This document shows, piece after piece, positions 1-57,707 of a DNA stretch of 64,000 nt. The DNA is from an uncultured Pelagibacteraceae bacterium (GTDB lineage: Bacteria > Pseudomonadota > Alphaproteobacteria > Pelagibacterales > Pelagibacteraceae). The notes beneath the pieces were generated by a model. It had not been told where the DNA came from. It worked only from the letters and a program-made list of their open reading frames with translations, and made no database searches. The stretch lies in contig CACPNO010000001.1 in assembly GCA_902635335.1 (NCBI GenBank), forward strand, positions 95,018 through 159,017, written 5' to 3'. The position numbers and the translations under genes were made by a program. Position 1 is the first letter of the stretch. Each line of letters opens with the position of its first letter.

Positions 1-1026
1 GATTCATTTAATGACTGTGATTTAATTCCAAATATCCTAAATAGTGTTGGTGAACCTGATTTAAAAACAGAGGTTTTTGGAACAAAGATGGATATGCCAA
101 TTTTTCTGTCACCTACAGCTATGCAAAGTTTATATCACCCGGATGGAGATAAAGCATCTGCTAGAGCTGCTGAAAAATTTGGAACGATTTATAGTATGTC
201 TACCATGGCATCTTTTTCGATTGAAGAAATTTCAAATCTTTCAAGTGGGCCAAAAATTTTCCAATTGTATATTCATAAGGATCAATCAATAACAAATGAC
301 TTAATTGATAGATGTAAGAGAGCAAACTTTAACGGAATGTGTATTACAGTTGATACAATTGTTGCTGGGAATAGAGAAAGAGATCATAGAACAGGTTTTA
401 CCACACCACCTAAATTCACCTTAGATAGTCTGATGAGTTTTGCGATGAGACCTCAGTGGGTGTTTAATTATTTTACGAATAAGAAATTTGAGTTAGCTAA
501 TCTCAAGGATAAAGTTGAGAAAGGTACTAATATTGCTCAATCTGTTATGGGATATATAAATGAACAATACGATCCTGCTATGAATTGGGAAGATGCAGAG
601 TATTGTATAAAGAAATGGAACGGTCCTATTGCACTTAAAGGAGTTATGTCAGTTGAAGATGCTAAAAGAGCAATAGATATTGGATGCACCGCTATAATGA
701 TATCAAATCATGGTGGAAGACAACTTGATGGGTCAAGATCTCCATTTGATCAAGTAAAGGCTATCAAAGATGCTGTAGGAGATAAATTAGAGGTAATTTT
801 AGATGGAGGAGTAAGAAGAGGAACGCATGTTCTAAAAGCATTAGCCGCGGGTGCGACAGCTTGTAGTTTTGGAAAAGCATTCTTGTTTAGTTTAGGTGCT
901 GGTGGACAGCAAGGTGTCGAGAGATTATTACAAAATATGCATGATGAAATAAGACGAAATATGATTTTGATGGGATGTAAAAGTATAAATGATCTAGACG
1001 AGTCAAAAATTATATATCGAAGATAA
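1..1026 (+). CDS. lldD: FMN-dependent alpha-hydroxy acid dehydrogenase (L-lactate dehydrogenase/glycolate oxidase family), 5'-truncated by window edge
   Basis: Frame is open from base 1 (DSFNDCDLIPN...). Motifs FQLY, LKG, SNHGGRQ and DGGVRRG. Substrate (lactate vs glycolate) not resolvable. Confidence 0.85.
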   Translation, partial: DSFNDCDLIPNILNSVGEPDLKTEVFGTKMDMPIFLSPTAMQSLYHPDGDKASARAAEKFGTIYSMSTMASFSIEEISNLSSGPKIFQLYIHKDQSITNDLIDRCKRANFNGMCITVDTIVAGNRERDHRTGFTTPPKFTLDSLMSFAMRPQWVFNYFTNKKFELANLKDKVEKGTNIAQSVMGYINEQYDPAMNWEDAEYCIKKWNGPIALKGVMSVEDAKRAIDIGCTAIMISNHGGRQLDGSRSPFDQVKAIKDAVGDKLEVILDGGVRRGTHVLKALAAGATACSFGKAFLFSLGAGGQQGVERLLQNMHDEIRRNMILMGCKSINDLDESKIIYRR

Positions 1027-1088
1027 AAAATTTTAATTAATAGACATAGTTAATCTTTTCAGTTAGTTTCCACTTTCAAAATAATTTT

Positions 1089-2255
1089 ATGAGACTTGCA
1101 AAGAATTTAGAAAATTTAGGAACCGAATCCGCTTTTAGTGTATTAGCTGAAGCAAAAGCATTAGAGGCTAAAGGCCACCCGATGATACACTTAGGTTTGG
1201 GACAACCAGATTTTAAAACTCCCAAACATGTAGTTGAAGCTGCAAAAAAGGCTTTGGATGATGGTCATCATGGATATGTTATGTCAAATGGAATTCCAGA
1301 ATGTAGGCAAGCTGTAACTAGATGGATTAAAAAACGTTATAATACTGACATAGATTTTGAGAGAATATTAATTATGCCAGGTGGAAAACCAACAATGAGT
1401 TATGCAATTCAGTGTTATGGTGAACCTGGAGCAGAGATAATTCATCCAACACCTGCTTTCCCAATTTATGAGTCAATGATTAACTATACTGGTTCTACTC
1501 CAGTGCCATATGATTTAACTGAGGATAAAGATCTAAAATTTGATCCAGATAAAATATTGTCACTAATAACAGATAAAACTAGATTATTAATTTTAATTAA
1601 TCCAAATAACCCAACAGGAAGCTTTGTTGAAAAACCAGTCATAGATTATTTTGCCAAAGAATTGGAAAAACATCCACATGTTACGATCTTAAGTGATGAA
1701 ATCTATAGCAGACAAATATTTGACTACAAAGAAATGCCATCGTTTTTTCATTATGAAAGTTTAAGAGACAGATTAATTGTATTAGAAGGTTGGAGTAAAG
1801 CATATTCAATGACTGGATGGAGATTAGGTTGGAGTTTTTGGCCAAAGGAACTAGTAGAGCATGTAAATAAATTATTAATCAACAGTGTATCTTGTGTAAA
1901 TGCTGCAGCACAATTTGCTGGTATAGCAGCTTTAGATGGTCCAGATGACTCAATTAAAGATATGTTAGACAAGTTTACTTTAAGAAGAAATTTAATTCAC
2001 AAAGGTTTAAATGATTTACCAGGAATTGAATGCAGTCTTCCAGGTGGAGCTTTCTATGCATTTCCAAATGTAAAAGGCACTGGAATGACAGGTGCAGAAT
2101 TTTGTAAAAAAGCAATGCATGAGGCAGGCGTTGCAATAGTTCCAGGAACTGCTTTTGGTAAAACTTGCCAAGATTATGTGAGATTTAGTTTTGCCGCATC
2201 CAGAGATAACATACAACAGGCCTTAGAAAACATAGGCAAGATGCTTTCTAAATAG
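1089..2255 (+). CDS. PLP-dependent aminotransferase class I/II (aspartate aminotransferase-like)
   Basis: GQPDF, NPNNPTG, DEIY and SKAYSMTGWRLG PLP-lysine motif. Confidence 0.9.
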   Translation: MRLAKNLENLGTESAFSVLAEAKALEAKGHPMIHLGLGQPDFKTPKHVVEAAKKALDDGHHGYVMSNGIPECRQAVTRWIKKRYNTDIDFERILIMPGGKPTMSYAIQCYGEPGAEIIHPTPAFPIYESMINYTGSTPVPYDLTEDKDLKFDPDKILSLITDKTRLLILINPNNPTGSFVEKPVIDYFAKELEKHPHVTILSDEIYSRQIFDYKEMPSFFHYESLRDRLIVLEGWSKAYSMTGWRLGWSFWPKELVEHVNKLLINSVSCVNAAAQFAGIAALDGPDDSIKDMLDKFTLRRNLIHKGLNDLPGIECSLPGGAFYAFPNVKGTGMTGAEFCKKAMHEAGVAIVPGTAFGKTCQDYVRFSFAASRDNIQQALENIGKMLSK

Positions 2256-2293
2256 ACTGTATTTTTTAAAAGAAACTTCTATAATATTTAATT

Positions 2294-3667
2294 ATGAATG
2301 AAATTGTTCAAACAGAATTAAAAAAAATTTTTAATGGAAGATTTTCAACATCAGAGTCCACTCGATCAAACTATGCTAGAGGTGAAGACACTTATGACCC
2401 AATACTTTCAAAAGCTGTAGTATTTCCAGAGACAAATGAAGAAGTTTCTCAATTATTAAAGCTATGTAATGAGCATAAAATTCCAGTTGTTCCATTTGGT
2501 ACAGGCACTTCTCTGGAAGGTCACGTTGTAGGAAATCAAAACGGTATTACTATTTCTCTTGAAAAAATGAACAAAGTTTTAAGCGTTAATGCTGAGGACT
2601 TTGATTGTAGAGTTCAAGCAAATGTTACAAGAAAACAATTAAATGAATATTTAAGAGAGGATGGAGTATTTTTTCCAATTGACCCGGGTGCAGACGCAGC
2701 TCTTGGTGGAATGGCTGCCACTTCGGCTTCTGGAACAATGGCTGTTAAATACGGTACAATGAGAACTGTAATTTCAGGTCTCACAGTTGTTCTTCCCAAT
2801 GGAGATATTATTAAAACAGGAGCTAGAACAAAAAAAACTTCTGCGGGATATAATCTCACAAATTTATTTATAGGTTCAGAAGGAACGCTTGGAATAATTA
2901 CTGAAGTACAATTAAGATTATCACCCATACCTGAAAGTATAATGAGTGCAGTTTGCTATTTCCCAGATTTAGACTCTGCAGTAAAAGCATCACAAGAAGT
3001 TATTCAGTACGGTGTTCCAATTGCAAGAATTGAAATGCTTAACAAAGATCAGATGGAAATTAGTATTAAATATTCAAAACTAGAAAACATAAAAGCATCA
3101 CCGACATTATTTTTTGAATTCCATGGGAGTGAGGCTTCAAATAATGAAAATATTGGTATTGTAGAGGAAATTTCTAAAAGTAATGGTGGAAGTGATTTTC
3201 AATGGGCATCTTCTCCCGAAGAACAAAAAAAATTATGGAAAGCAAGACATGATGTTTATTACTCTGTTAAAGCTTTAGGAAACGACATGAAAGTTTATTC
3301 AACAGACGTTTGTGTTCCAATTTCAAGATTAGTCGAGTGTATATCTTGGGCAGAAAAAGAAGTACAAAAACTAGGTTTAACTGCTCCAATGGTAGGCCAC
3401 GTAGGTGATGGAAATTTTCACTCTATTGTTCTTTATGACCCAGAGGATCATGAAAAACAAAAAAAAATTCGACAATACAGTGATGATTTAATAAACAAAG
3501 CACTTGAGCTTGAAGGAACAATCACTGGAGAACACGGTATAGGTCTTCAAAAGAAACATTATTTGCTTAGAGAACATCCAGACAATGTACCCGTTATGAA
3601 ATCTATTAAAAGATCTTTGGATGTAAATAACATAATGAATCCCGGTAAAATTTTCGATTTAAATTAA
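2294..3667 (+). CDS. FAD-linked oxidase, D-lactate dehydrogenase (cytochrome)/GlcD family
   Basis: PFGTGTSLEG, GSEGTLG, GHVGDGNFH, TGEHGIG and NPGK motifs. Confidence 0.88.
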   Translation: MNEIVQTELKKIFNGRFSTSESTRSNYARGEDTYDPILSKAVVFPETNEEVSQLLKLCNEHKIPVVPFGTGTSLEGHVVGNQNGITISLEKMNKVLSVNAEDFDCRVQANVTRKQLNEYLREDGVFFPIDPGADAALGGMAATSASGTMAVKYGTMRTVISGLTVVLPNGDIIKTGARTKKTSAGYNLTNLFIGSEGTLGIITEVQLRLSPIPESIMSAVCYFPDLDSAVKASQEVIQYGVPIARIEMLNKDQMEISIKYSKLENIKASPTLFFEFHGSEASNNENIGIVEEISKSNGGSDFQWASSPEEQKKLWKARHDVYYSVKALGNDMKVYSTDVCVPISRLVECISWAEKEVQKLGLTAPMVGHVGDGNFHSIVLYDPEDHEKQKKIRQYSDDLINKALELEGTITGEHGIGLQKKHYLLREHPDNVPVMKSIKRSLDVNNIMNPGKIFDLN

Positions 3668-3677
3668 TTACATATCT

Positions 3678-4631
3678 ATGAAAAAAATTTTGGTCACAAG
3701 AAGATTGCTAAGATCTTGTGAAGACAAGGCTAAAGAAATTTTTGATGCAAATTTGAATTTAAACGATGAACTATATTCTCAAAAAAAACTTGTTGAAATG
3801 AGCTATGGCTGTGATGGAATATTATCAGCTCTTACTGATAAGTTAGATGCTGAAACAATAAATCAATTACCCGATACTGTAAAAATATTATCAAATTTTG
3901 CAGTTGGTTTTGGAAATATTGATTTGGATGCAGCAAGAAATAGAGGAATTGCAGTGACTAATACTCCAGATGTTTTGACAGATGCAACAGCTGAAATAGG
4001 GGTTCTTTTAATATTGGGTGCTTGCAGGAGAGCTTCTGAGGGAATTGAAAGAGCAAGAGAAGGAGGTTGGGTTTGGTCAGCAGATTTATTAATAGGAAAA
4101 CAATTAACTGGAACTAGATTGGGAATATTAGGAATGGGAAGAATTGGACAAAAGATTGCAAAAGTCGCTAAATCGCTGGGTATGGTTATTCATTATCACA
4201 ATAGATCAAAGCTAACTGAGGATAAGGAGCAGGGAGCAGTTTATCATGACAACCTAAAAGATTTGTTATCAGTTTCAGATGTATTATCTGTTTGCTGTCC
4301 TGCATCGAAAGAGACAATTAACATGATAAACAAAGATACAATAGAATATTTGCCCAAAGGAGCAATTGTAACTAATGTTGCAAGGGGCGATATAATAGAG
4401 GATGAGGCAATGGTTGATGCTCTTGATAGAAGAAAAGTTTATGCAGTTGGATTAGATGTCTACAAAAATGAGCCAAATTTAAACAAAGGTTATTATAGGC
4501 ATAAAAGCGCGTTTATTCTTCCACATTTAGGTAGTGCAACCAAGGAAACTAGAACAGCAATGGCTAATTTAGCAATAGACAACCTTGATGAATTTTTTAA
4601 GACAGGAAATTGCAAAAATAAAGTCAATTAA
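3678..4631 (+). CDS. D-isomer-specific 2-hydroxyacid dehydrogenase (glyoxylate/hydroxypyruvate reductase, GyaR/GhrB-like)
   Basis: VTNTPDVLTDATA, GMGRIG Rossmann motif, NVARG, GLDVY..EP and LPHLGSAT. Confidence 0.88.
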   Translation: MKKILVTRRLLRSCEDKAKEIFDANLNLNDELYSQKKLVEMSYGCDGILSALTDKLDAETINQLPDTVKILSNFAVGFGNIDLDAARNRGIAVTNTPDVLTDATAEIGVLLILGACRRASEGIERAREGGWVWSADLLIGKQLTGTRLGILGMGRIGQKIAKVAKSLGMVIHYHNRSKLTEDKEQGAVYHDNLKDLLSVSDVLSVCCPASKETINMINKDTIEYLPKGAIVTNVARGDIIEDEAMVDALDRRKVYAVGLDVYKNEPNLNKGYYRHKSAFILPHLGSATKETRTAMANLAIDNLDEFFKTGNCKNKVN

Positions 4632-4720
4632 CAATCTCAAGTTGTATTTAACCTATTTGTCCTAATTTTTAAAATGACTCTAAGTTACATTTATGTTTAA
4701 TTATCATTAGTTAATTAACT

Positions 4721-4730
4721 AAAGAGGAGA
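4721..4730 (+). promoter_or_regulatory. Strong Shine-Dalgarno site for the TRAP solute-binding protein
   Basis: AAAGAGGAGA ending 5 nt before ATG at 4736. Confidence 0.75.
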
Positions 4731-4735
4731 AATAA

Positions 4736-5869
4736 ATGATTAAAGACAAAAAACTAATGAAGGTAAAAAAAACGCCTTCAAGACGTAAGTTCTTTAAAGC
4801 TGCTGCTGCAACAGGTGTTGCCGCTGTAGCTGCATCATCTTTGTCTGCTCCAGCTGTTGCCAAAGACAGAATTGAAGTTTCAATGGTAGCAACTTGGGGA
4901 AGAGATTTCCCAGGTCTAGGAACTGGTGCACAAAGATTTGCGCAAAGAATTGGTGATGTAAGTGATGGAAGAATTCAAGTTACTTACTACGCTGCTAACG
5001 AAAGAGTTAAGGCATTTGACTCATTTGATGAAGTTGCTTCAGGTAACTCTCAAATGTATCATGCTGCAGACTATTATTGGGTGAAAAAAGATCCTGCTTG
5101 GGGTTACTTCACTGCAGTACCTTTCGGTTTCACTTACACAGAAATGAATGCTTGGATCAGATTTGCTGGTGGTCAACAATTATGGGATGAATTAGCAGAT
5201 AAATTTGGTCTAAAAAATTTCATGTGTGGTGATACAGGAGTTCAAATGGGTGGATGGTTTAACAAGAAAATCAGAAGTCCAAATGACTTTAAAGGTTTAA
5301 AAATGCGTATGCCTGGATTAGGTGGTCAAGTTATTGGTAAACTTGGAGGATCTCCAGTTTCACTTCCTGGTGGACAGATTTATGAAAACTTAGTGTCTGG
5401 TGCAATTGATGCAACAGAATGGGTTGGTCCATGGAATGATGAAGCAATGAAATTCCAAGAAGCAGCTAAATACTACTACTATCCTGGAATGCACGAACCT
5501 GGTTCAATGTTAGCTTGTGGATGTAATAAATCTTGGTTTACAAGTTTATCAAAATCAGATCAGTTGTTAATCGAAGCTTGTGCATCTACTGAAAACGACG
5601 TTATGATGTCAGAGTACAATGCTAAAAACGGAGCAGCATTAGCTAGATTGATAAACGACCATGGTGTTAAACTAGAGAAGTTTAGTGATAAAGTTTACGA
5701 TGGTTTTGGAAAAGCAGCAGAGGAAGTTTTTGAGGAAACTAGAGCAAGTAGTGGTCTCGCTGAGAGAATCCACACAAGTTTCTTAAAAGCTAGAAAAGAA
5801 ATTGGTGCTTGGACAAACCTATCAGACTCACCTTACATTCAGCAAAGAAACAGAGTGCTAGGAATGTAA
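4736..5869 (+). CDS. dctP: TRAP transporter solute-binding protein, TakP-like (2-oxo/2-hydroxy monocarboxylate), Tat-exported
   Basis: Twin-arginine signal SRRKFFK. YYW, GVQMGGW, KMRMPG, TEWVGP and HEPG motifs of the TakP-like subfamily. Confidence 0.9.
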   Translation: MIKDKKLMKVKKTPSRRKFFKAAAATGVAAVAASSLSAPAVAKDRIEVSMVATWGRDFPGLGTGAQRFAQRIGDVSDGRIQVTYYAANERVKAFDSFDEVASGNSQMYHAADYYWVKKDPAWGYFTAVPFGFTYTEMNAWIRFAGGQQLWDELADKFGLKNFMCGDTGVQMGGWFNKKIRSPNDFKGLKMRMPGLGGQVIGKLGGSPVSLPGGQIYENLVSGAIDATEWVGPWNDEAMKFQEAAKYYYYPGMHEPGSMLACGCNKSWFTSLSKSDQLLIEACASTENDVMMSEYNAKNGAALARLINDHGVKLEKFSDKVYDGFGKAAEEVFEETRASSGLAERIHTSFLKARKEIGAWTNLSDSPYIQQRNRVLGM

Positions 5870-5888
5870 TTACGTCTTTTATGTAATT

Positions 5889-5918
5889 AAAAGGGCCCTT
5901 AATTGGGCCCTTTTTTTT
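5889..5918 (+). terminator. Rho-independent terminator between dctP and dctQ
   Basis: AAAAGGGCCC-TTAATT-GGGCCC stem-loop followed by 8 T. Confidence 0.9.
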
Positions 5919-5958
5919 AGTTTCAATAAAAGTAAATTTTTAGTATTAAAAAAAATCT

Positions 5959-7008
5959 ATGGACTCCGAAAGTAAGATTACAGCACGTTATTTAAGAATT
6001 TTAAGCTACTCTGTGTTAGCTTTTACGCTAGCATTTTTAATAAATAATATTCTTACAGTTTGGGTCGACTGGCCAGGAGTAAAAAAAATTTTTTCTCATT
6101 ACGAATTATTTGGTTTTAAACAAAAAGCACTTCAAGGATCAGAATTAAATTATGGTTATTTGCAAATTGGAATTTATTTGATTTGTATTGCTGGAGTTAT
6201 TTTATACGTATTTAAAACATATTCTCAGACACTGGAACATGATTCAGAAATATTATCAAAATTTTCTGCATATTTAGTTAGATCATCTTTTTGGGCTGTA
6301 TTTCTAGTTGGTGTTGCTGATTTTATAATTTCATTCATGGTTGTGGAAAGACTATGGGAAGCTATTTTTAGTCCTGAGGTTAAAGCTTTTATGGTTAAAG
6401 CTCCTGAAAGAATTACATTTATACATTTTCCAATTATTTTAGGATCTTTCATAATTGGATATTTTACAAAATCAGTCGGATTTATTTGGCTTGCAGTTCT
6501 AGTCGTACTAAGTGAATTTGTAATAGTATTATCAAGATTTATATTTTCTTATGAGCAAGCTTTTCAGGGAGACCTTGTGAGATTTTGGTATGCAGCGCTA
6601 TATCTATTTGCAAGTGCATATGCTCTAATACACGAAGGTCACGTAAGAGTAGATGTCCTTTACTCTTCTTTTAGTGAGAGAAAAAAAGCATGGACTAATT
6701 CGATAGGTTCAGCACTTCTTGGAGTACCACTTTGTTTAATAGTTATCTTTTATGGTTTAAACGGTAAAGCAAGTATTATTAACGGACCCGTAGTTGCTTT
6801 TGAAGTAACTCAGCAAGGTTCTAACGGACTATATCTACTTTATTTAATGGCTGTTTATTTAGGAGTTTTTGCAGTTACGATGTTGCTGCAATTCACAAGT
6901 TATTTTATGAGCAGTAGCCACAAACTTCTGCAAAATGATGAAGAGGTAAATATTTCAAAGGTCGATAAAACAAATAAAGTTAGTATCGAAAATATGGAAA
7001 GCCAATAA
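5959..7008 (+). CDS. dctQ: TRAP small permease, unusually long (349 aa)
   Basis: HVRVDVLY DctQ motif in the C-terminal half, multiple TM segments, located between dctP and dctM. Confidence 0.85.
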   Translation: MDSESKITARYLRILSYSVLAFTLAFLINNILTVWVDWPGVKKIFSHYELFGFKQKALQGSELNYGYLQIGIYLICIAGVILYVFKTYSQTLEHDSEILSKFSAYLVRSSFWAVFLVGVADFIISFMVVERLWEAIFSPEVKAFMVKAPERITFIHFPIILGSFIIGYFTKSVGFIWLAVLVVLSEFVIVLSRFIFSYEQAFQGDLVRFWYAALYLFASAYALIHEGHVRVDVLYSSFSERKKAWTNSIGSALLGVPLCLIVIFYGLNGKASIINGPVVAFEVTQQGSNGLYLLYLMAVYLGVFAVTMLLQFTSYFMSSSHKLLQNDEEVNISKVDKTNKVSIENMESQ

Positions 7009-9659
7009 TGGAATTATTTTTTTTAGCTATATTAGTTTTAATTATGATTGCAGCTCTAGCTTCAGGGTATCCAGTTGCCTTTGCTCTTCCTGGTTCAGCT
7101 ATCATATCTATCGGTTTAGCAGCTTTTTTTGGTTATATTTTTGCTGGCGATGTTGATGCTTACTTCGCTGTCGATGGTCCAACCGAATGGCTTGTTGCTG
7201 GAATTACAAATTTTAGAAGTAATTACTGGGACGTCGAGACTGACACTTTAATTGCAATTCCCTTATTTATTTTTATGGGAATTATGCTTCAAAAATCAAA
7301 AATTGCTGAGGATTTATTAATAACTATGGGTCAATTATTTGGCCCGATACCTGGTGGTTTAGGTATTTCGGTAATATTTGTTGGTGCATTATTAGCTGCA
7401 ACTACAGGTATTGTCGGAGCAACAGTCATTGCAATGGGATTAATTTCATTACCTACAATGTTAAACAACAATTATGACAGAAAACTTGCAAGTGGAATTG
7501 TTTGCTCTTCTGGAACTCTAGGACAGATTATTCCGCCATCAATTGTATTAATTATTATAGCGGACCAATTAGCGAGCGCATCAGATGTTGCCAATAACAT
7601 GAGGCAGAACGATTATAAAGCTTTAACAGGCGAATTTAACATGCCAGGTGAATTTAGAGTAGGTTCATCCAGTGCCGGTGACATGTTCCTGGGAGCACTT
7701 TTACCAGGATTAGTACTTGTAGCTTTATATATGATCTATGTATTTTTCTATGCAAGAATAAAAAAAGGGGTTGCCCCACCTGTTCCATTTAAAGGAAACT
7801 TTGATTTCAAATTTTGGATGAGAGTTATTGTTATAATTATTCCTCCACTTGCATTAATTTTTGCTGTTTTAGGATCGATTCTTATGGGTATTGCAACTGT
7901 GAACCAAGCTGGTTCTATAGGAGCAATTGGAGCAACATTAATGGCGGGTTACCGTCTATTTCAAGGTAAGAAAAGTGCCTTCTATCCACTTATAATGATA
8001 ATTGGATCATTAATACCCATTACTTTTTTTGCATCAAATTATGAACTTAACATAAAAAATATAGAAGAAAGAGATTTAGGAGCAATTTATATAACTGCTA
8101 TTTTTGTAATCACTTTGGTTTATGGAATAGCATGGAGTTTTTGGAGAACATATAAAACTGAAAATGTTCTTAAAGAAGTAGTAACCGAAACGTGCGTTAC
8201 AACTTCGATGGTATTTATTATTTTATTAGGTGCTGCAATGCTTACATCAGGATTTAGAGCATTTGGTGGTGAAGAATTAGTAAGAGACTTCCTTCAAGAT
8301 TTACCCGGGGGCTTTTGGACTCAGTTTGTAGTTGTAATGATTGTAATATTCTTACTTGGGTTCTTTTTAGATTTTATTGAAATCGCTGTTGTGGTTGTTC
8401 CAATAATTGCACCTATATTATTAGCTGAGACAGGAGCAAACGTTACAGCGGTCTGGTTAGGTGTTATGATTGGTGTCAATTTACAAACCTCTTTTTTAAC
8501 TCCCCCCTTTGGTTTTGCCTTATTTTATTTAAAAGGTGTTGCTCCAAAAGTGGTACAAACATTAGATATTTGGAAAGGTGTTGTTCCATTTATAATTTTA
8601 CAACTCATTGGCCTAGCAATTGTAGGGTCTTATCCAAGTCTGGTAAATTATCTTCCAAATAGAGTTTATCTGACTTCAAATGTAGCTCCACCTCCTATGA
8701 ACCCGAAACTTCAATATTGTTTGCAAGAATATAAATTTGTAAAATATACAAACAATGCAGATGAAATAAAGAATAGCATAGACGATTTTGATTCAATAAT
8801 ACTTGCAAATTTACCAGCCGATAAGTTAAGTTATTTCCAACGTCATGTTGATAATTCAAATTATACATTTGAATTAGTTGATGATGTAAAAAGTGCCGAA
8901 GCTATTTACAATGATTACGCTGTTGATTATCGAGATTTACATTTCAAAACGAGAAAAAAACAAAAGAAAATTTTTAAACTCAATAAAAAAATAGATAAAT
9001 TTAAAGCCGAAATTAGAAATTTAGATGATGATGAAGTTTCTGAAAAAAATAAAATTGAACAAAGAATTGAGAACATAAAACTCGAAATTGACGAAATAGA
9101 AAACTCAATTTCTAAAGATTGGAAATCAAGAAATGATGAATTTAACAAGATTAATAAAGCAAAAAACTTAGCAGTAAAAAAATATCGTAAAACTGCAGAC
9201 AATGCATATGATGATTTAATGTTGATAAAATTATTTATTTTAGATGGTGAAAAATTTGAAGAATTAAATGAAGATATCAAAATTCTTAAATCTAAAATTG
9301 ACAATAGAGGATATTTAGATGCAATTGATCATATTGATAATATGTTTGATAAAGTAGGAGAGATTTCTGGATCAGATGAATTTGCAGATAAATTAGATTA
9401 TCTAATAACTATAATGGATGAAGATGAAAAAGATCCAGAACAAATTCAAAAAATAGCTAGTGATACTTATGCACATTTTGATCAAGAAGTAAGTTGGAGA
9501 AATGAATTTGACAAAAAATATATGGATAGAATAAATAATCACTTAACTGTATTAAGTGAAACTATTGGATTGAGGTTACAACAAAAACTTACAAAAGAGC
9601 AAGCAATTTATGTTTCAAAATGTAATTCAGTACACAGAGATATTTCTCTCAATTTTTGA
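7008..9659 (+). CDS. dctM: TRAP large permease with internal insertion and ~330-aa soluble C-terminal extension
   Basis: LIAIPLFIFMG, GTLGQIIPPS, LGFFLD and FLTPPFG DctM motifs. 883 aa. Confidence 0.9.
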   Translation: MELFFLAILVLIMIAALASGYPVAFALPGSAIISIGLAAFFGYIFAGDVDAYFAVDGPTEWLVAGITNFRSNYWDVETDTLIAIPLFIFMGIMLQKSKIAEDLLITMGQLFGPIPGGLGISVIFVGALLAATTGIVGATVIAMGLISLPTMLNNNYDRKLASGIVCSSGTLGQIIPPSIVLIIIADQLASASDVANNMRQNDYKALTGEFNMPGEFRVGSSSAGDMFLGALLPGLVLVALYMIYVFFYARIKKGVAPPVPFKGNFDFKFWMRVIVIIIPPLALIFAVLGSILMGIATVNQAGSIGAIGATLMAGYRLFQGKKSAFYPLIMIIGSLIPITFFASNYELNIKNIEERDLGAIYITAIFVITLVYGIAWSFWRTYKTENVLKEVVTETCVTTSMVFIILLGAAMLTSGFRAFGGEELVRDFLQDLPGGFWTQFVVVMIVIFLLGFFLDFIEIAVVVVPIIAPILLAETGANVTAVWLGVMIGVNLQTSFLTPPFGFALFYLKGVAPKVVQTLDIWKGVVPFIILQLIGLAIVGSYPSLVNYLPNRVYLTSNVAPPPMNPKLQYCLQEYKFVKYTNNADEIKNSIDDFDSIILANLPADKLSYFQRHVDNSNYTFELVDDVKSAEAIYNDYAVDYRDLHFKTRKKQKKIFKLNKKIDKFKAEIRNLDDDEVSEKNKIEQRIENIKLEIDEIENSISKDWKSRNDEFNKINKAKNLAVKKYRKTADNAYDDLMLIKLFILDGEKFEELNEDIKILKSKIDNRGYLDAIDHIDNMFDKVGEISGSDEFADKLDYLITIMDEDEKDPEQIQKIASDTYAHFDQEVSWRNEFDKKYMDRINNHLTVLSETIGLRLQQKLTKEQAIYVSKCNSVHRDISLNF

Positions 9660-10676
9660 TTAACTTGTAATCTGTTCAATTATATTTGTCCTTTGATATA
9701 AACTAAGTCTTTCCGCTTTGTCTTTTAATTTGTTATACTCAGTTTTTAATGTAAAGGTTTTTACATTAACTTTATTTCCAATTTCAATTATTGATCCAAT
9801 AATTGGATCTATTTCTAAAGGACGTTTTGCATGTAAGTCTTGCGTTGTCGAGGGTTTGTGACCAATAATAGAGATAGTAGCTTTAATTCTTTGATCGATT
9901 GAGACGTTGAATTTTACACCTATTTTCTCTCCTACTAACTGACATTCTTCCATCAATTTTCTTACGGTGTTTAATAATTCTGGGTCATTACCAATTTCAT
10001 CCAAAGTCTTATCATATAGTGCGCTTACTATATTAAATGAGCAATTACCCCAGAGCTTTATCCATATTTCATCTCTTAGATTACTTTTTTGTGGAGCTTT
10101 TAAGCCTCCTGCAATTAATAAGTCTGCAATAATTTTAAGTCTTTCTGATTTTGATCCATCTGGTTCGCCTAATGTAAATCTTTCACCACCATTGTGTTTA
10201 ATAACACCAGGTTCAGTAATTTCAGCTGCTGGATAAACCACACATCCAAGAGCTCTTGAAGGATTCAAAGAATTCCAAATCTTACCATCAGGATCAACAC
10301 TATCTATATGTTTCTCATCTAAGTTTGTCCCCGTGTTAGCTTTATGAAAATACCACCAAGGTAAGCCATTCACAGCAGATATTATAGTTGTATTTTTTCC
10401 AATTAAGCTTTGAAGAGAATCAACTATATTAGAAATTGCATGAGCTTTTATTGAAATAAAAATATAATCTTGAATTCCAAGTTCTTTGGGATCATCTGTT
10501 ACTTTTAATTTAAAGTTTTCTGTTTTATCTTTTTTAATTAATGTTAAACCATTTTCCTCAATAGCTTTTTTGTGTAGACCTCTGGCTATAAGTGATAAAT
10601 CAATATTATTTTTACTCAAACACGCAGCTAAATATCCCCCAATCGATCCTGCACCAAATATACAAACTTTTGTCAT
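9660..10676 (-). CDS. PanE/ApbA-family reductase, likely oxalyl-CoA reductase type rather than true ketopantoate reductase
   Basis: GAGSIG, NGLPWWYFH insertion and EIWIKLWGN. Translationally coupled to an oxalate-CoA-ligase-like gene. Confidence 0.75.
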   Translation of the reverse strand: MTKVCIFGAGSIGGYLAACLSKNNIDLSLIARGLHKKAIEENGLTLIKKDKTENFKLKVTDDPKELGIQDYIFISIKAHAISNIVDSLQSLIGKNTTIISAVNGLPWWYFHKANTGTNLDEKHIDSVDPDGKIWNSLNPSRALGCVVYPAAEITEPGVIKHNGGERFTLGEPDGSKSERLKIIADLLIAGGLKAPQKSNLRDEIWIKLWGNCSFNIVSALYDKTLDEIGNDPELLNTVRKLMEECQLVGEKIGVKFNVSIDQRIKATISIIGHKPSTTQDLHAKRPLEIDPIIGSIIEIGNKVNVKTFTLKTEYNKLKDKAERLSLYQRTNIIEQITS

Positions 10677-12184
10677 TAATTATTTAAACCAAATTTTTTT
10701 GCTAAAACATTTCTTTGTAATTTTCCTGTTGCTCCTTTTGGAATTTCTTCAACAAAAAAAATTTTTTTTGGTATTTTAAATTTAGCAAGTTTTTCTTGAG
10801 CATATTCTAAAACATCATTTTCTGAAAATGCCTCACCACTTTTTATTATAATTGCACTAGCAATATTTTCTCCAAGCATTTTGTCTTCATATCCAAAACA
10901 AACTGCTTGATCTATTAATGGATGGTCCATTAATACATTATCAACTTCTAATGGAGATATTTTTTCTCCACCTTTATTAATTATTTCTTTCAATCTTCCT
11001 GAAATCTTTAAATAACCCTCATTGTCGAAATAACCTTGATCGCCAGTTCTAAACCAACCATTGGTAAAACTTGTTTTGTTTGCTTCTTCATTATTATCGT
11101 ATCCAAGAGTTACATTTTCACCTTTTATACACACTTCTCCTTCATCACCTTGTTTTAGCACTTCCCCATCTTCGTTCATAATACATACCTCTGGACCTGC
11201 TGGAAGGCCTACAAATCCTGCTTTTTGTTGCTTAGGTGGCAATGGATTAGAAGTCATTTGGTGAGTAGCTTCTGTCATACCGTATGCTTCAATTACTGGG
11301 CAACTAAAAACATCATTTAAATCTTTGAATACTGCTGGTGGTAAAGATGCAGATGATGATCTAATTAATCTTAGTTTTAGTAGCTTAGCAACTTCTAAAT
11401 TTCTACTTGCTCTTAATAAAATAGCCTGATGCATTGTAGGCACCCCTGAGTACCAAGTTATTTTTTCTGATTTAGCAATATCTAAAAACTTGATAGCATT
11501 AAAACCATTTGATGCACATACAGATGCCCCAGCTTTCATTGATGAAGCTAAAATAGCTATAAGACCATGTATATGAAAAAGTGGCATAATATTAAGACAA
11601 TGGTCATTTTTAGAAAGATTTAAACTTTTAGAAATATTTTCTGCAGAAGAAAAAATATTTTTATTTGTTAAAGGAACAATTTTTGGTCTTGATGTAGTAC
11701 CAGAAGTGTGTAGCACTAATGCTTCATCATTTTCATCAGGTAAAGAATATTCACTTTCTTTTTCATAAATATTAAATATTCCTGAAGGTCCATCCTTTTC
11801 TGGATTAATCTCACATAATTCTATTTTTAATTTTTTTGCTACATCGACAACTGGATTTTCAGAATTTTTCTCAACCAAAACAATTTTTGGATTTAAATCT
11901 TTTAAATAAAATTCATACTCCTCAGATTTATATGATGGATTTAAAGGTGCAGCAGACATATAGCTTGAAATAGCTAAAAAACTTGAAGCCATATATGGCC
12001 CATTTGGTAAAACTATCGCTGCTCTATCTTTGTTTGATAATCCATTTCCAGCCAGCTGTTTAGAAATTTTATCTATAAATGATTTTAAATCTTTGTAATT
12101 TAGTTTTGTACTGATTTCAGAGGTTAGAGCAATATTTTCATCATTCACATTTTCAAAAATGTTTCTAACAATTCTTTTTGACAT
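10676..12184 (-). CDS. Acyl-CoA synthetase, oxalate-CoA ligase (AAE3/Pcs60/Oxs)-like
   Basis: LHTSGTTSRPK, MPLFHIHGL, RSSSASL, EAYGMTEATHQMTSNPLPP, INKGGEKISPLEVD and PKGATGKLQR. Confidence 0.8.
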   Translation of the reverse strand: MSKRIVRNIFENVNDENIALTSEISTKLNYKDLKSFIDKISKQLAGNGLSNKDRAAIVLPNGPYMASSFLAISSYMSAAPLNPSYKSEEYEFYLKDLNPKIVLVEKNSENPVVDVAKKLKIELCEINPEKDGPSGIFNIYEKESEYSLPDENDEALVLHTSGTTSRPKIVPLTNKNIFSSAENISKSLNLSKNDHCLNIMPLFHIHGLIAILASSMKAGASVCASNGFNAIKFLDIAKSEKITWYSGVPTMHQAILLRASRNLEVAKLLKLRLIRSSSASLPPAVFKDLNDVFSCPVIEAYGMTEATHQMTSNPLPPKQQKAGFVGLPAGPEVCIMNEDGEVLKQGDEGEVCIKGENVTLGYDNNEEANKTSFTNGWFRTGDQGYFDNEGYLKISGRLKEIINKGGEKISPLEVDNVLMDHPLIDQAVCFGYEDKMLGENIASAIIIKSGEAFSENDVLEYAQEKLAKFKIPKKIFFVEEIPKGATGKLQRNVLAKKFGLNN

Positions 12185-12187
12185 TAT

Positions 12188-13771
12188 TTAGTACCCTTTT
12201 GCGTAACCATCTTTTCTAGGATCAGATCCTCCTAAAAGATCCCCTTCTGTACGATTTATTTTAATAGCTTGACCTCCACCATGAGTGCCATCAATATACT
12301 CAACATTATGACCGATTTCTTTCAATTCGTTAAAAATTTGATTGTCAACTGATTTTTCAAGCTTATAAATATTGTTAAAATGAAAGGCTCTTGGAAAACT
12401 TAAAGCCTCTTGAGGACCCATGCCGTAATCAATCATATTATTTAAAACATGCACCTGTCCTACTGGTTGATATTGCCCTCCCATAACTCCATAGCTCAAA
12501 GTTGTATTGTTATCTTTGTCAATGACCATACCTGGAATTATAGTGTGTAATGGTCTTTTTAAGCCCTCAATACAGTTTGGATGTCCATGCTCTACTCTGA
12601 AATTTGTACCCCTGTTATGTAAAAGTATTCCACTTTTATTTGTAGTGATACCTGACCCAAATACGTAACAAACTGAATTAATGATGGACACACTATTTAA
12701 GTCTTTATCTACAACTGTTAGATAAATAGTTTCTGGGTGAGCTGGAATATTTAAGTCACCAACATCACTGCATGAATTGAGCTTAATTTTATTAAAAATA
12801 TCCTCAATATTTTTATCACTTAAAATTTCATCTAAATCAAAATTTACAAAATTTGGATCGCCTAAGCTTGTTTCTTTAACTTTATAAGCTTGTTTTGTAA
12901 CTTCGGCTTCAAGATGAAATCTTTCAGTACTATTGAATTTATAGTTATGAATATTTAGTTTTTCTAACAATTTCATCATAATCAAAACAGTTACGCCAGG
13001 TCCATTTGGAGGACATTGATGAATAAAATCACCCTTATAACTAGATTTTATTGTTTCTGATCTTATTGTGTTCTGTTTAGAAAAATCCTCAAAAGTATGC
13101 ACACCCCCTAATTCACTTAAACTTTCAATTATATCTTTTGCAGTTTCACCTTCATAAAATTCTTTACTTCCTTTTTTACTAATTGCCTCTAATGTTTTTC
13201 CTAATGGGATATTTTTCATTAATTCATTTTCTTGATAAGTACGACCTTCTTTCAAAAAAATTTTTTTAGAATTTTCATTTCCATTAATTTTATTTAAGCT
13301 ATTATGCCAAGCATTTGACACTACTTTAGAAATCTTGTGACCATTTTTTGCAATCTCAATTGCACCTGTAAATAATTGTTCAAAATCTAATTTTCCAAAT
13401 TCTTTATGAATAGTTTCCCAAGCATGAACTGCACCAGGAATCGTTACTGAATGAGGACTTGTTAATCCAATTTTATCTATATTTTTTTCCTTGAAGAAAT
13501 CATAACTTAATTTCTCTGGTGCTAACCCAGATCCATTAAAAGATACTGCATCCTGATTATTCATTTTGACAATTGCAAAACAGTCTCCACCAATACTTGT
13601 TGCATTAGGCTCAACCACAGATAAAACAATTGAAGCTGCTATAGAAGCATCTACTGCATTTCCACCCATTTTTAGTATTTTTAAGGCCTCTTCGGTCGCT
13701 AATGGATGAGAAGTTGCAGCCATAGCATTTGATGAGCGTGCATCTTTATCTTTTGTTGATTGATTATTCAT
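12188..13771 (-). CDS. Gamma-glutamyltransferase-family Ntn hydrolase (YwrD/HpxW-like clade), no signal peptide
   Basis: GGNAVDA, nucleophile Thr in ETIYLTVVD, FGSG, KRPLHTIIPG, GVMGG and SDPRKDG. Confidence 0.88.
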   Translation of the reverse strand: MNNQSTKDKDARSSNAMAATSHPLATEEALKILKMGGNAVDASIAASIVLSVVEPNATSIGGDCFAIVKMNNQDAVSFNGSGLAPEKLSYDFFKEKNIDKIGLTSPHSVTIPGAVHAWETIHKEFGKLDFEQLFTGAIEIAKNGHKISKVVSNAWHNSLNKINGNENSKKIFLKEGRTYQENELMKNIPLGKTLEAISKKGSKEFYEGETAKDIIESLSELGGVHTFEDFSKQNTIRSETIKSSYKGDFIHQCPPNGPGVTVLIMMKLLEKLNIHNYKFNSTERFHLEAEVTKQAYKVKETSLGDPNFVNFDLDEILSDKNIEDIFNKIKLNSCSDVGDLNIPAHPETIYLTVVDKDLNSVSIINSVCYVFGSGITTNKSGILLHNRGTNFRVEHGHPNCIEGLKRPLHTIIPGMVIDKDNNTTLSYGVMGGQYQPVGQVHVLNNMIDYGMGPQEALSFPRAFHFNNIYKLEKSVDNQIFNELKEIGHNVEYIDGTHGGGQAIKINRTEGDLLGGSDPRKDGYAKGY

Positions 13772-13800: not shown

Positions 13801-15012
13801 ATGATTACTAAAGTAAATAAAAGCATTATCATATTTTGTATTTTTGCCTTTGGTTTTTTATTATCAAATCTTGTTAGATCTATCACTGCAACATTAACAC
13901 CAGTCCTGACATATGAATTCGATTTAACAGCAGGAAATTTAGGACTGTTAGCAGGAGGCTATTTTATTGGCTTTTCAATTATGCAAGTCCCAATAGGACT
14001 ACTTCTTGATAAATATGGACCAAAAAAAGTCGTTGGATATTTTTTAGTAATTGCATTGGTAGGAACCATATCATTTGCATTAGCAAAAAGTTTTTCTGGG
14101 TTACTTATTTCAAGAATATTTATTGGGATCGGCGTGAGCGCTTGTATGATGGGACCTCTAACAGGATACAGAGTTTGGTTTGCTGAAAAATATCAACAGC
14201 GTGCTAATTCATGGATGTTAATGGTAGCAAATATAGGTTTTGTATCATCTACTTTACCTGTACAGATTTTATTACCATACATAGGATGGAGATGGATTTT
14301 CATTTTAATAGCTATACTTATTTTAATAAGTATTATTTTAATTTTTTTATTCACTCCTAATTGGGAACAGAAAGAAAACTTCACTGTTGATGAAGAAAAA
14401 AAAGGTTTAGCACAAATTTGGAAGAATAAGTTTTTTATCAGTATGGTACCATTGGCATTTATTAATTATGGTGGTATACAGGCAATCCAAACGCTTTGGG
14501 CTGGTCCTTGGATGCTAAATATTACAGGTTATTCTCCATTTCAAAGTGCTACAGGCTTGTTTTGGATCAATGTAACTATGTTAGCATCATACTTTTTATG
14601 GGGATATATTCTTCCCAAACTCTCTGATTATGGAATAAGTAGTGTTAAACTAATTAAATTTGGACTCCCAGTAAGTTACTTTGTTTTTTTTCTAATAATC
14701 TTTTTTGGTCCTAAAGCTGGAGCTTTTTTATTTGCAATATACATTATGACTTCAATTGTAATTTCTCTAACTCAACCAGCTATAGCTTTAAACTTTTCAC
14801 AAAATTTAGCAGGCAAGTCACTTACTTCATATAATGTATTCATTCATTCAGGAACATTCTTTATGCAATGGGGTATTGGATTATTTATAGACTTATTTAA
14901 TTCTAAAGGATTTGATATTGTAAGTAGTTATAGAATTTCTTTTTCAATTTTTTTAATTCTTTGTATATTAAGTTATATTTTTTTCAGTTATCTAAATAGA
15001 AATAATGATTAA
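13801..15012 (+). CDS. MFS transporter
   Basis: About 12 hydrophobic segments and motif A GLLLDKYGPKK. Confidence 0.88.
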   Translation: MITKVNKSIIIFCIFAFGFLLSNLVRSITATLTPVLTYEFDLTAGNLGLLAGGYFIGFSIMQVPIGLLLDKYGPKKVVGYFLVIALVGTISFALAKSFSGLLISRIFIGIGVSACMMGPLTGYRVWFAEKYQQRANSWMLMVANIGFVSSTLPVQILLPYIGWRWIFILIAILILISIILIFLFTPNWEQKENFTVDEEKKGLAQIWKNKFFISMVPLAFINYGGIQAIQTLWAGPWMLNITGYSPFQSATGLFWINVTMLASYFLWGYILPKLSDYGISSVKLIKFGLPVSYFVFFLIIFFGPKAGAFLFAIYIMTSIVISLTQPAIALNFSQNLAGKSLTSYNVFIHSGTFFMQWGIGLFIDLFNSKGFDIVSSYRISFSIFLILCILSYIFFSYLNRNND

Positions 15013-18210: not shown

Positions 18211-18318
18211 ATCGCCGTTTCCGCAAAATACAGCAATTTGCGGTGTCTTTGGTAACAAAGAGATCGACACCAGTCAGCGAGAGTTCGCCCACTGGTGCGA
18301 TACTTGCTGGATGTGATT
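18211..18318 (+). ncRNA. ffh leader structured RNA motif (cis-regulatory)
   Basis: GC-rich island with stems CCGCAAA/TTTGCGG, TCTTTG-GTAA-CAAAGA, CACCAGT/ACTGGTG and GCGA/TCGC, plus pseudoknot CAGCAA(18231-36)/TTGCTG(18304-09). An ffh 5' motif is known in Pelagibacter and other alphaproteobacteria. Confidence 0.85.
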
Positions 18319-26290: not shown

Positions 26291-26291
26291 A

Positions 26292-27920: not shown

Positions 27921-27970
27921 TATAGTTTCTTTACAAAAATCAAATAAGATGGCAGTAATGCTCAAAAAAA

Positions 27971-29080
27971 ATGAAAACTTTTTTAATAGCAAAATCAAGA
28001 AGGCTTAGAGGTACACCGTACACGTCTAGAATTGAAAAACAAGGTGTAACTGCTTATACTATATATAATCATATGTTGCTGCCAGCAGCATTCGGTTCTG
28101 TAGAAGATGCTTACCATCACTTAAAAGAGCATGTTCAGATTTGGGATGTTGCCGCTGAAAGACAAGTTGAAATTTCTGGTAAAGATTCAGCTAAATTAGT
28201 TCAATTGATGACTTGCAGAGATTTATCAAAATCCAAAGATGGAAGATGTTATTATTGCCCAATCATTGATGATAATGCAGGTTTAATTAATGATCCTGTA
28301 GTTCTAAGATTAAATGAAAATAGGTGGTGGGTTTCTTTAGCCGACTCAGATGTAATTCTATTTGCCAAAGGATTAGCGATTGGAAATAAATTTGATGTAA
28401 AAATTTCTGAACCTGATGTTGATATAATGGCAGTGCAAGGACCAAAATCATTTCAATTAATGGAAAAAGTTTTTGGAAAAAAAATTGTAGATTTAAAATT
28501 TTTTGGTTTTGATTATTTTGAATTTGGTGGAGATAAACATCTTATTGCGAAGTCTGGATGGTCTAAACAAGGTGGCTATGAAATTTATATGGAACACAAC
28601 GAGTCAGGTTTAAAACTATACGATCATCTTTTTGAAATTGGTAAGGAATTCAATATTAGACCAGGTGGACCAAACCTTATCGAACGTATTGAGAGTGGTT
28701 TACTTTCCCATGGTAATGATATGGACAATGGAGATAATCCATATGAATGTGGTTTTGATAAGTATGTAAATATAGATAGTGATGTTGATTTTTTAGGTAA
28801 AGAAAAACTGAAAAAAATTAAAGCTGAAGGAATTAAAAAAAAACTTATGGGAGTAAAAATTGATGCCAAGGAAATAAGTGTTAATGGCTCAATGGATCTA
28901 GTAGATGAAGATAATAATACAATCGGAGAATTAAGATCTGGTTGTTACAATCCGACCTTTGAGCAAGTCATTGGGATTGCAATGATTAACAAACCACACT
29001 TTGAGACTTCGAAATCCTTTAAAATCAATATAAATGGCTCTGATTTTGATGGAAAAGTTTGTGATTTACCTTTCATTTAG
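27971..29080 (+). CDS. dmdA: DMSP demethylase (GcvT fold)
   Basis: [38 protein letters not shown] and PNLIERIE closely match Pelagibacter DmdA as recalled. 369 aa. Confidence 0.95.
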
Positions 29081-56987: not shown

Positions 56988-57707
56988 CTAGAAATTATCC
57001 TTTAAATCTCTCAATTTTGAAAAGTTTTCAACATTTTTTGATCTTAAAAAAATATTAGTTTGAAGCTCCTCTTTAAGTGTCGATGGAATAGTTGGCTGAC
57101 CTTTGGCCAGACGATTTTTTATAAACTCAATTTTGGAAATTAAAGCTTTATTTTCTGGATCGTGTTTTAGGCAAAAATCTGAATTTTTTAATGTATATTC
57201 ATGTCCACAATAAATTTCTGTCTCAATTGGTAAACTCTTTAACAACTGCAAAGAATTAAACATCTGTTCATGAGTGCCCTCAAACACTCTTCCACAACCT
57301 AATGAAAATAATGTATCTCCAGAAAATAATGCATTTTCATTAAAAAAATAGAAACATATATGGCCTAAAGTATGACCTGGAATATGAAAAACTTTTGCTT
57401 CAAATATACCGTCTTTCCAAGTTTCATCATTTTTTAAAGATATATCTATTTCAGGTATTCTATGCTTATCTTCATTAAAACCTATAACCTTAGCATTATA
57501 TAATTTCTTGAGCTCTTTATTGCCTCCAACGTGATCATAATGATGGTGAGTGTTCATTATGAATTTTAATTTTAGATTAAGACTTTCAATTTTATTTATA
57601 ATAGGCTCTGCTTCACTAGGATCTATTACAATGCTAGACTTTGTTAACTCATCAATTAATAAATACGAAAAATTATCTTCTAAACATTTTATAATTTCTA
57701 TTTTCAT
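56988..57707 (-). CDS. gloB: Hydroxyacylglutathione hydrolase (glyoxalase II)
   Basis: THHHYDH, PGHTLGH, GDTLFSLGCG and CGHEY. Confidence 0.95.
   Translation of the reverse strand: MKIEIIKCLEDNFSYLLIDELTKSSIVIDPSEAEPIINKIESLNLKLKFIMNTHHHYDHVGGNKELKKLYNAKVIGFNEDKHRIPEIDISLKNDETWKDGIFEAKVFHIPGHTLGHICFYFFNENALFSGDTLFSLGCGRVFEGTHEQMFNSLQLLKSLPIETEIYCGHEYTLKNSDFCLKHDPENKALISKIEFIKNRLAKGQPTIPSTLKEELQTNIFLRSKNVENFSKLRDLKDNF

Follow-up and report, generated by a model that had tools for sequence, protein, structure and literature searches.

Recurrent either/or exchange between glcDEF and an lldD1-dld pair at a small-acid locus of Pelagibacter

The window analysed here is a 64,000-nt stretch of contig CACPNO010000001.1 (assembly GCA_902635335.1, positions 95,018 to 159,017 of the forward strand) from an uncultured Pelagibacteraceae bacterium, whose genome (G000) was assigned to the genus holding Pelagibacter HTCC1062, HTCC7211 and HIMB5. 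Its 5′ end carries a small-acid locus in which dld, encoding a single-subunit flavoprotein, lies exactly in the slot that glcDEF occupies in other strains, and a second lldD paralogue (lldD1) is found directly upstream of the window. Genomes carry either lldD1 and dld or glcDEF, and switching between the two states has occurred repeatedly. An earlier sequence-only reading of the window had proposed a hub of two- and three-carbon acids that could meet both the pyruvate and the glycine requirement of the cell; it missed lldD1 and the exchange with glcDEF. The hub idea is largely known, whereas no description of the swap was found in the literature searched, and the strict, recurrent exchange is the new element. 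The explanation that we favour, with a probability of about 0.5, is that LldD1 and Dld form an iron-free replacement of GlcDEF in which an LldD paralogue would have taken over glycolate.

Mutually exclusive oxidase genes

Distribution was counted in a single draw of 151 genomes: 110 had lldD1, 106 had dld and 33 had glcF. Both lldD1 and dld were present in 105 genomes, and neither overlapped with glcF (0 of 33). Five cases with lldD1 alone were read, and in four of them the sequence stops at a break in the contig or assembly. In near-complete genomes lldD1 was present in 37 of 74. No lldD1 or dld was present in 70 glcF loci that extend across both slots, a set that overlaps the 151-genome sample in part, and both states were seen with the same exclusivity in a second genus. 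G000, a 64% complete genome, gave no glcF match, though its oxidase slot itself is intact. In four genomes (L094, L095, L096 and G083) frameshifts or stops interrupt the glcF gene; other genes are split too in L094 and L096, which suggests assembly errors in these two.

The sister genera mostly show the order lldD2-aspC-glcDEF, suggesting that glcDEF is the older state. The RpoB tree, built from 52 genomes, gave 10 changes of state as the best estimate, at least seven of which are forced by well-supported branches. The two slots are 2.4 kb apart, and the genes between them (lldD2 and aspC) do not sort by state in their own trees, each requiring at least four forced changes. The middle genes recombine while both ends stay coupled, and simple hitchhiking of one block fails for this reason. 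SAR11 bacteria recombine often. It could be supposed that two ancient haplotypes of a block of about 7 kb were exchanged whole by recombination, with lldD1 and glcDEF functionally unrelated; the short distance between the slots would fit, as would the AspC of HTCC7211, which is 96% identical to that of the window while its neighbours are at about 80%. However, the mixing of the intervening genes across states indicates that recombination does occur there, and no lldD1+glcDEF recombinant was seen among the 33 genomes and 70 loci. We consider such neutral linkage very improbable.

Predicted substrates of the two oxidase forms

The core genes are listed below, with coordinates of the window unless stated otherwise.
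G000:C1:93741-94895 (= L001:16742-17896), outside the window and directly upstream: lldD1, second lldD paralogue, 384 aa
1..1026, plus strand: lldD2, flavin mononucleotide (FMN)-dependent (S)-2-hydroxy-acid oxidase/dehydrogenase, 383 aa, PF01070 (E = 1.6e-119), 5′ end outside the window
1089..2255, plus strand: aspC, class I/II pyridoxal phosphate (PLP) aminotransferase, orthologue of HTCC1062 AspC and candidate aminotransferase of glyoxylate or small 2-oxo acids
2294..3667, plus strand: dld, single-subunit flavin adenine dinucleotide (FAD) D-lactate/D-2-hydroxyacid dehydrogenase of LDHD/DLD1 type, best PDB match mouse LDHD
3678..4631, plus strand: ghr, NAD(P)H glyoxylate/hydroxypyruvate reductase-like D-2-hydroxyacid dehydrogenase, from the family scan

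lldD2 starts 126 bp before the window, its start is overlapped by lldD1, and the two products are 55% identical. LldD2 is nearly universal in the family.

The FAD-linked oxidase of the window had been described as belonging to the Dld/GlcD family; its residues place it with LDHD and DLD1, not with GlcD. Its match to mouse LDHD has an E-value of 2.4e-131, and R318, H369, H376, E413 and H414 correspond to Arg347, His398, His405, Glu442 and His443 of LDHD. Dld has in this way the five catalytic and metal residues of subsite A, as well as the hydrophobic subsite B, of the FAD- and Mn2+-dependent mouse/human LDHD and yeast DLD1 (PMC10589216), and lacks the GlcD tyrosine; it differs from LDHD by Tyr for Trp351 and Val for Ala363. 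SAR11 GlcD proteins carry Phe/Tyr at the positions of W351/A363 in 24 of 24 sequences, and that Tyr was found in none of 45 Dld sequences, the window protein having Val334 there. A GlcDEF enzyme would be expected to have a GlcD with the Phe341/Tyr351 pocket that scores above the TIGR00387 cut-off, together with glcE and glcF; Dld was rejected as a GlcD because of its score (339 against a cut-off of 567.9 bits) and the Val in place of Tyr. Mouse LDHD shows no activity towards glycolate (PMC10589216); the rates at which Escherichia coli GlcDEF oxidises glycolate and D-lactate are similar (PMC10272880). From the LDHD residue pattern and the inactivity of LDHD on glycolate, Dld is predicted to be a D-lactate rather than a glycolate enzyme and would take over just one of the two GlcDEF activities, that on D-lactate. 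The earlier expectation that the L- and D-specific oxidases yield pyruvate or glyoxylate is narrowed accordingly: Dld is unlikely to be a glyoxylate producer.

LldD1 and LldD2 both belong to PF01070, retain the catalytic Tyr/Tyr/Arg/Lys/His/Arg residues and the FMN-binding motif, and score below the cut-offs of the named LldD and lactate oxidase (LOX) families. At the three signature positions (82, 112 and 212 of No-LOX) LldD1 has T/L/F and LldD2 has T/M/I. The published signatures are T/W/V for plant glycolate oxidase and M/L/F for the cyanobacterial L-lactate oxidase (PMC7020209). Neither protein has the plant-type triplet; LldD1 agrees with the cyanobacterial one at two of three positions and LldD2 at none, the signature having been defined on distant enzymes. 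LldD1 is the most conserved gene product of the core (mean identity 94%, against 83-89%). Among its homologues outside SAR11, an 84% identical one lies on a 234-kb JGI contig (L390:1-7611) in a co-oriented run of cox2, cox1, the lldD1 homologue, iscS, glyA, a peroxiredoxin gene and clpP, next to unannotated and HNH genes; the run may represent auxiliary metabolic genes carried by a large phage. This contig was dropped as a parallel to a glycolate oxidase, alanine-glyoxylate aminotransferase (AGT) and serine hydroxymethyltransferase arrangement, because its class V gene is iscS. Other non-SAR11 homologues of LldD1 had no informative neighbour genes.

Taken together, the locus is best read as a conserved small-acid core, lldD-aspC-[oxidase]-ghr, with a slot behind it in which cassettes for uptake and catabolism are exchanged. 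The oxidase part takes one of two forms: GlcDEF (FAD and 4Fe-4S), which acts on glycolate and D-lactate and is the form of HTCC1062 and HIMB5, or Dld with the extra FMN oxidase LldD1, found in the window genome and HTCC7211. In the second form, Dld would convert D-lactate to pyruvate, one LldD paralogue, probably LldD1, would convert glycolate to glyoxylate, and the other would convert L-lactate to pyruvate. AspC would then aminate glyoxylate to glycine, and Ghr would drain surplus glyoxylate or hydroxypyruvate. The assignment of glycolate to LldD1 or its paralogue is suggested because LldD1 consistently accompanies Dld, because its family includes glycolate oxidase and because it shows the highest conservation in the core. 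The narrower proposal, that LldD1 is a bacterial glycolate oxidase/dehydrogenase with a non-plant signature, and that LldD1 and Dld are a recurrent, iron-free, non-orthologous replacement of GlcDEF, is put forward only tentatively.

Several points weigh against the replacement of GlcDEF by LldD1 and Dld. The substrate roles of all enzymes of the locus are predictions, and the T/L/F of LldD1 appears closer to the M/L/F of lactate oxidase than to the T/W/V of glycolate oxidase. The trees were quick and short, and related genomes are not independent of one another. Some loci have dispensed with one of the two LldDs: lldD2 was lost and lldD1 kept in six (L174-L178 and L180), all of the dld type, and lldD1 was lost and lldD2 kept in two dld loci (L050 and L187), although one of these genomes has lldD1 elsewhere. 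These losses hint at an overlap between the two paralogues. Finally, HTCC7211 was not rescued for glycine by the glycolate-producing Prochlorococcus MED4 (PMC6775983). This last result is confounded, because HTCC7211 lacks the transporter of the major facilitator superfamily (MFS) that is the proposed glycolate importer. The MFS gene of the window is 52% identical to its counterpart behind glcDEF in HTCC1062 (G609:276225-277418), and this putative importer is kept in some dld-type genomes, including G000.

The same observations could indicate a trade of substrates, in which LldD1 (L-lactate) and Dld (D-lactate) form a stereo-complete cassette from lactate to pyruvate that displaced GlcDEF, with glycolate use lost; the aminotransferase would then be left with isocitrate lyase as its source of glyoxylate, plus the oxalate cassette in genomes that have one. 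The LOX-like Leu/Phe of LldD1 and the HTCC7211 phenotype (PMC6775983) point in this direction, as do the presence of aceA in G000 and the oxalate cassette, which occurs mostly in genomes with lldD1/dld (33 of 37), as if filling in for a missing source of glyoxylate. However, this enrichment is confounded by kinship, and the trade leaves unexplained why lldD1 never stands beside glcDEF, since LldD2 is already L-lactate-like. We regard it as rather unlikely.

Under the replacement of GlcDEF by LldD1 and Dld, iron economy would be a plausible driver, because the lldD1-dld pair encodes no Fe-S subunit and saves about 1.5 kb (2.5 kb against 4.0 kb): GlcF has two 4Fe-4S motifs, Dld and LldD none. 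Plants likewise split the two activities of bacterial GlcDEF between an FMN glycolate oxidase and a mitochondrial D-lactate dehydrogenase. These plant enzymes belong to the same two protein families as LldD1 and Dld, which offers an analogy for the proposed division of labour, although LldD1 lacks the T/W/V signature and the homology is only about 40%.

What SAR11 can live on is governed by its needs for glycine and pyruvate, and until now the presence of glcDEF has served as the yardstick for glycolate cross-feeding from Prochlorococcus. If LldD1 is a glycolate enzyme, half to three quarters of Pelagibacter genomes, now scored glcDEF-negative, could make glycine from phytoplankton glycolate via AspC. 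The exclusive distribution points to two small flavoproteins of soluble type that would decide whether such strains keep the glycolate route or have traded it for lactate, and reduces the matter of glycolate-to-glycine cross-feeding in them to a question of three enzymes. Strains classed as non-users of glycolate therefore merit retesting, and the swap also provides a concrete hypothesis of iron economy.

The aminotransferase

The aminotransferase of the window is 83% identical to Q4FNY9 of HTCC1062, whose gene (G609:282450-283610) lies immediately 5′ of glcD, and is the orthologue of HTCC1062 AspC, the protein that name and gene order identify as SAR11_0279. A report citing Carini et al. 2013 states that aspC had already been proposed as the enzyme from glyoxylate to glycine on account of its position beside glcDEF (PMC3870248). 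The suggestion of the sequence-only reading that the "aspartate" aminotransferase makes glycine from glyoxylate was thus anticipated, since the 2013 proposal concerned the orthologous gene; it is an existing published hypothesis and still a prediction only. The HTCC1062 locus lldD-aspC-glcDEF-ghr-MFS (SAR11_0274-0280; PMC3870248, PMC6775983) is the closest comparison, with aspC in the same position, flanking lldD2 and ghr, a related MFS and the same proposed logic from glycolate through glyoxylate to glycine. The window differs in having dld for glcDEF, the extra lldD1, another transporter of the tripartite ATP-independent periplasmic (TRAP) type from the TakP family, and the oxalate cassette.

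AspC shares with the subgroup Ib aspartate aminotransferases (AspATs; Thermus, Phormidium, Rhizobium AatA/B) the fold (TM about 0.9), the PLP lysine (K237), the α-carboxylate arginine (R365) and the Lys109 equivalent (K100), the last being invariant in 87 homologues. It is at most 36% identical to any solved structure, and searches with an AlphaFold model in Foldseek and with the ESM Atlas matched only generic class I aminotransferases. The difference lies in the distal-carboxylate pocket, where AspC has Glu13, Ala15 and Phe124 in place of the Ser, Thr and Trp of Phormidium AspAT and of the AatA of the same genome; E13, A15 and F124 are invariant in the same 87 homologues (59 SAR11 and 28 other sequences). 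We take the N-terminal Ser and Thr and Trp140 of subgroup Ib AspATs to bind the distal carboxylate. With this acid pocket replaced, a strict aspartate/2-oxoglutarate role is unlikely, and a canonical AatA with S/T/W is encoded elsewhere in G000. The pocket gives a residue-level reason to revisit a decade-old assignment. A class V alanine/serine-glyoxylate aminotransferase was ruled out (PF00155 only, not PF00266), which lowers the case for an AGT by descent, not for activity on glyoxylate. The aspC of HTCC7211 (L113:6010-7176), with neighbours 77-87% identical to those of the window, appears to be the product of a recent single-gene recombination.

The aspC subfamily, recognised by an invariant LGTE-x-AF start, occurs in about one third of alphaproteobacteria, and no characterised member was found. 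It adjoins glnB-glnA in 14 of 18 non-SAR11 alphaproteobacterial loci (L220-L237), and the HTCC1062 protein rises 2-fold under nitrogen limitation together with GlnA and GltBD, in a table that includes no other core gene of the locus (PMC3870248). Along with its not being a class V AGT, these data fit an enzyme primarily of nitrogen assimilation or amino-acid scavenging (Gln/Glu/Ala paired with a range of 2-oxo acids) that has entered the operon, glycine synthesis being at most a side activity. Such a role, compatible with either reading of the oxidases, is conceivable though somewhat doubtful. It does not account for AspC being fixed between 2-hydroxy-acid oxidases in every Pelagibacteraceae locus read, the sister genus included, nor for the partial substitution of glycine by glycolate in HTCC1062 (PMC6775983), which requires some glyoxylate aminotransferase. 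On balance we lean slightly towards glyoxylate amination by AspC being physiologically relevant.

Conserved core and accessory cassettes

The order ccm genes, pagL-like gene, lldD, aspC, oxidase was found in 31 of 31 loci read around the aminotransferase, and ghr follows the oxidase slot in 29 of the 30 that extend that far; the recurrence of this order in all 31 loci argues against chance. At least 32 of 36 genomes of the same genus have the aspC-type aminotransferase, which was not found in 24 searched genomes of the other family. Downstream of the core the window encodes the following.
4736..5869, plus strand: dctP, TakP-family TRAP binding protein with a twin-arginine-type leader, matching PDB 4pet, 5cm6, 7ug8 and 2hzk
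5889..5914, plus strand: GC-rich hairpin (10-pair stem) and T-run after dctP, intrinsic-terminator-like in a consensus scan only
5959..7008, plus strand: dctQ, TRAP small permease, PF04290
7008..9659, plus strand: dctM, TRAP large permease with a soluble C-terminal extension of about 330 aa, PF06808 and TIGR00786
9660..10676, minus strand: panE2, PanE2/ApbA2-type reductase of the PRK06522 subfamily, putative oxalyl-CoA reductase (oxalyl-CoA to glyoxylate)
10676..12184, minus strand: putative oxalate-CoA ligase of AAE3/Oxs/Pcs60 type, from PDB matches and substrate-site residues
12188..13771, minus strand: γ-glutamyltransferase (GGT)-family N-terminal nucleophile (Ntn) hydrolase, TIGR00066, co-occurring with the oxalate pair
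13801..15012, plus strand: MFS transporter, homologue (52% identity) of the MFS behind HTCC1062 glcDEF, just past the part covered by the sequence-only reading
56988..57707, minus strand: gloB, glyoxalase II, TIGR03413 (278 against a cut-off of 200.8 bits)

All the genes named in that reading proved to be intact open reading frames (ORFs) on the strands given, according to the ORF map and family scans, including the head-on convergence with the oxalate-like operon: dctM (stop at 9659) and panE2 (stop at 9660) abut stop to stop with a gap of 0 bp. Intergenic gaps on the plus strand are 62, 38, 10, 104, 89 and -1 bp, and those of the minus-strand operon -1 and 3 bp.

Rather than a single unit, the region comprises a core of four to five conserved genes and, beside it, an accessory cassette of TRAP, oxalate and MFS genes. 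The core is syntenic across Pelagibacter, while the TRAP and oxalate parts belong to a variable slot 3′ of ghr, which holds another TakP-family TRAP with an amidase, a sugar ATP-binding cassette (ABC) system, an MFS or the window TRAP. The hub, taken as one co-regulated unit of 14 kb (oxidases, TRAP, oxalate operon and glyoxalase II) that meets the pyruvate and glycine needs, seems quite improbable to us. In its favour, the oxalate operon lies head-on to a window-type dctM in every ligase-positive locus read, 36 of 37 ligase genomes have a window-type DctP, and without Oxc, reduction would be the only route for oxalyl-CoA. However, the parts lie on opposite strands, the window-type TRAP occurs in 59 and the oxalate-type ligase in 37 of the 151 genomes, and an ABC or some other cassette often intervenes between them and the core. 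Moreover, dld runs opposite to the operon in some genomes of one lineage (L047, L115, L401 and L424), and a consensus scan returned promoter-like sites at chance level, with no excess. Glyoxalase II, invoked as a further source of D-lactate or glycolate, is genuine, but gloB lies 43 kb from the cluster with no specific link to it, and its chemistry is generic.

The oxalate branch, in contrast, looks like a real route from oxalate through oxalyl-CoA to glyoxylate, as had been proposed, and may supply a second source of glyoxylate in about one quarter of genomes. The top PDB matches of the ligase are all oxalate-CoA ligases of plants and yeast (E = 5.8e-127, against 6.7e-61 for the next family). 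Its H204, S278 and H308 align with H214, S289 and H319 of AtAAE3, presumably substrate-site residues, in motifs invariant in 12 SAR11 copies. The ligase gene directly precedes a PanE-family gene in 25 of 29 loci of diverse alphaproteobacteria, and panE2 is distinct from the housekeeping PanE-family gene that G000 also carries (26% identity). A decarboxylase branch through Oxc/Frc was rejected, as no Oxc scored above the cut-off in five ligase-carrying genomes, four of them near-complete; for this reason reduction to glyoxylate is the probable fate of oxalyl-CoA in the cassette. The window shares the adjacent ligase and reductase genes and the oxalate-ligase motifs with Oxs and PanE2 of Methylorubrum extorquens, ApbA2 of Cupriavidus necator (PMC7486775) and Arabidopsis AAE3. 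It differs from the bacterial systems, to which the likeness is one of gene context, in its GGT-family hydrolase and in the lack of oxc in the five genomes. A 2025 paper already lists D-lactate and oxalate among the substrates used by offshore Pelagibacteraceae (PMC12636525).

The GGT gene is present in 36 of 37 ligase-positive genomes, and no signal peptide was seen in its product. Assignment as the oxamate amidohydrolase HpxW was rejected (87 bits for the large chain of 5hft, against 164 for other large chains and 251 for 2nlz), and an oxalyl amide is suspected, as a guess, to be the substrate. A more distant GGT-family gene (21-23% identity) adjoins oxs-panE2 in two other alphaproteobacteria (L255 and L261), so that Ntn amidases are recurrently linked to oxalate operons. 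DctP resembles solved binders of 2-keto acids and pyruvate, from which its ligand is predicted only, and was rejected as an orthologue of SAR11_0266, its best HTCC1062 match being 32%. The extension of DctM is charged and conserved in relatives.

An Rfam scan of the window matched only an ffh small RNA element (18253-18305, upstream of ffh) and no glycine riboswitch. Further downstream (24527-29080), genes for an acyl-CoA dehydrogenase, an acyl-CoA ligase and dmdA lie in a row and represent dimethylsulfoniopropionate demethylation genes.

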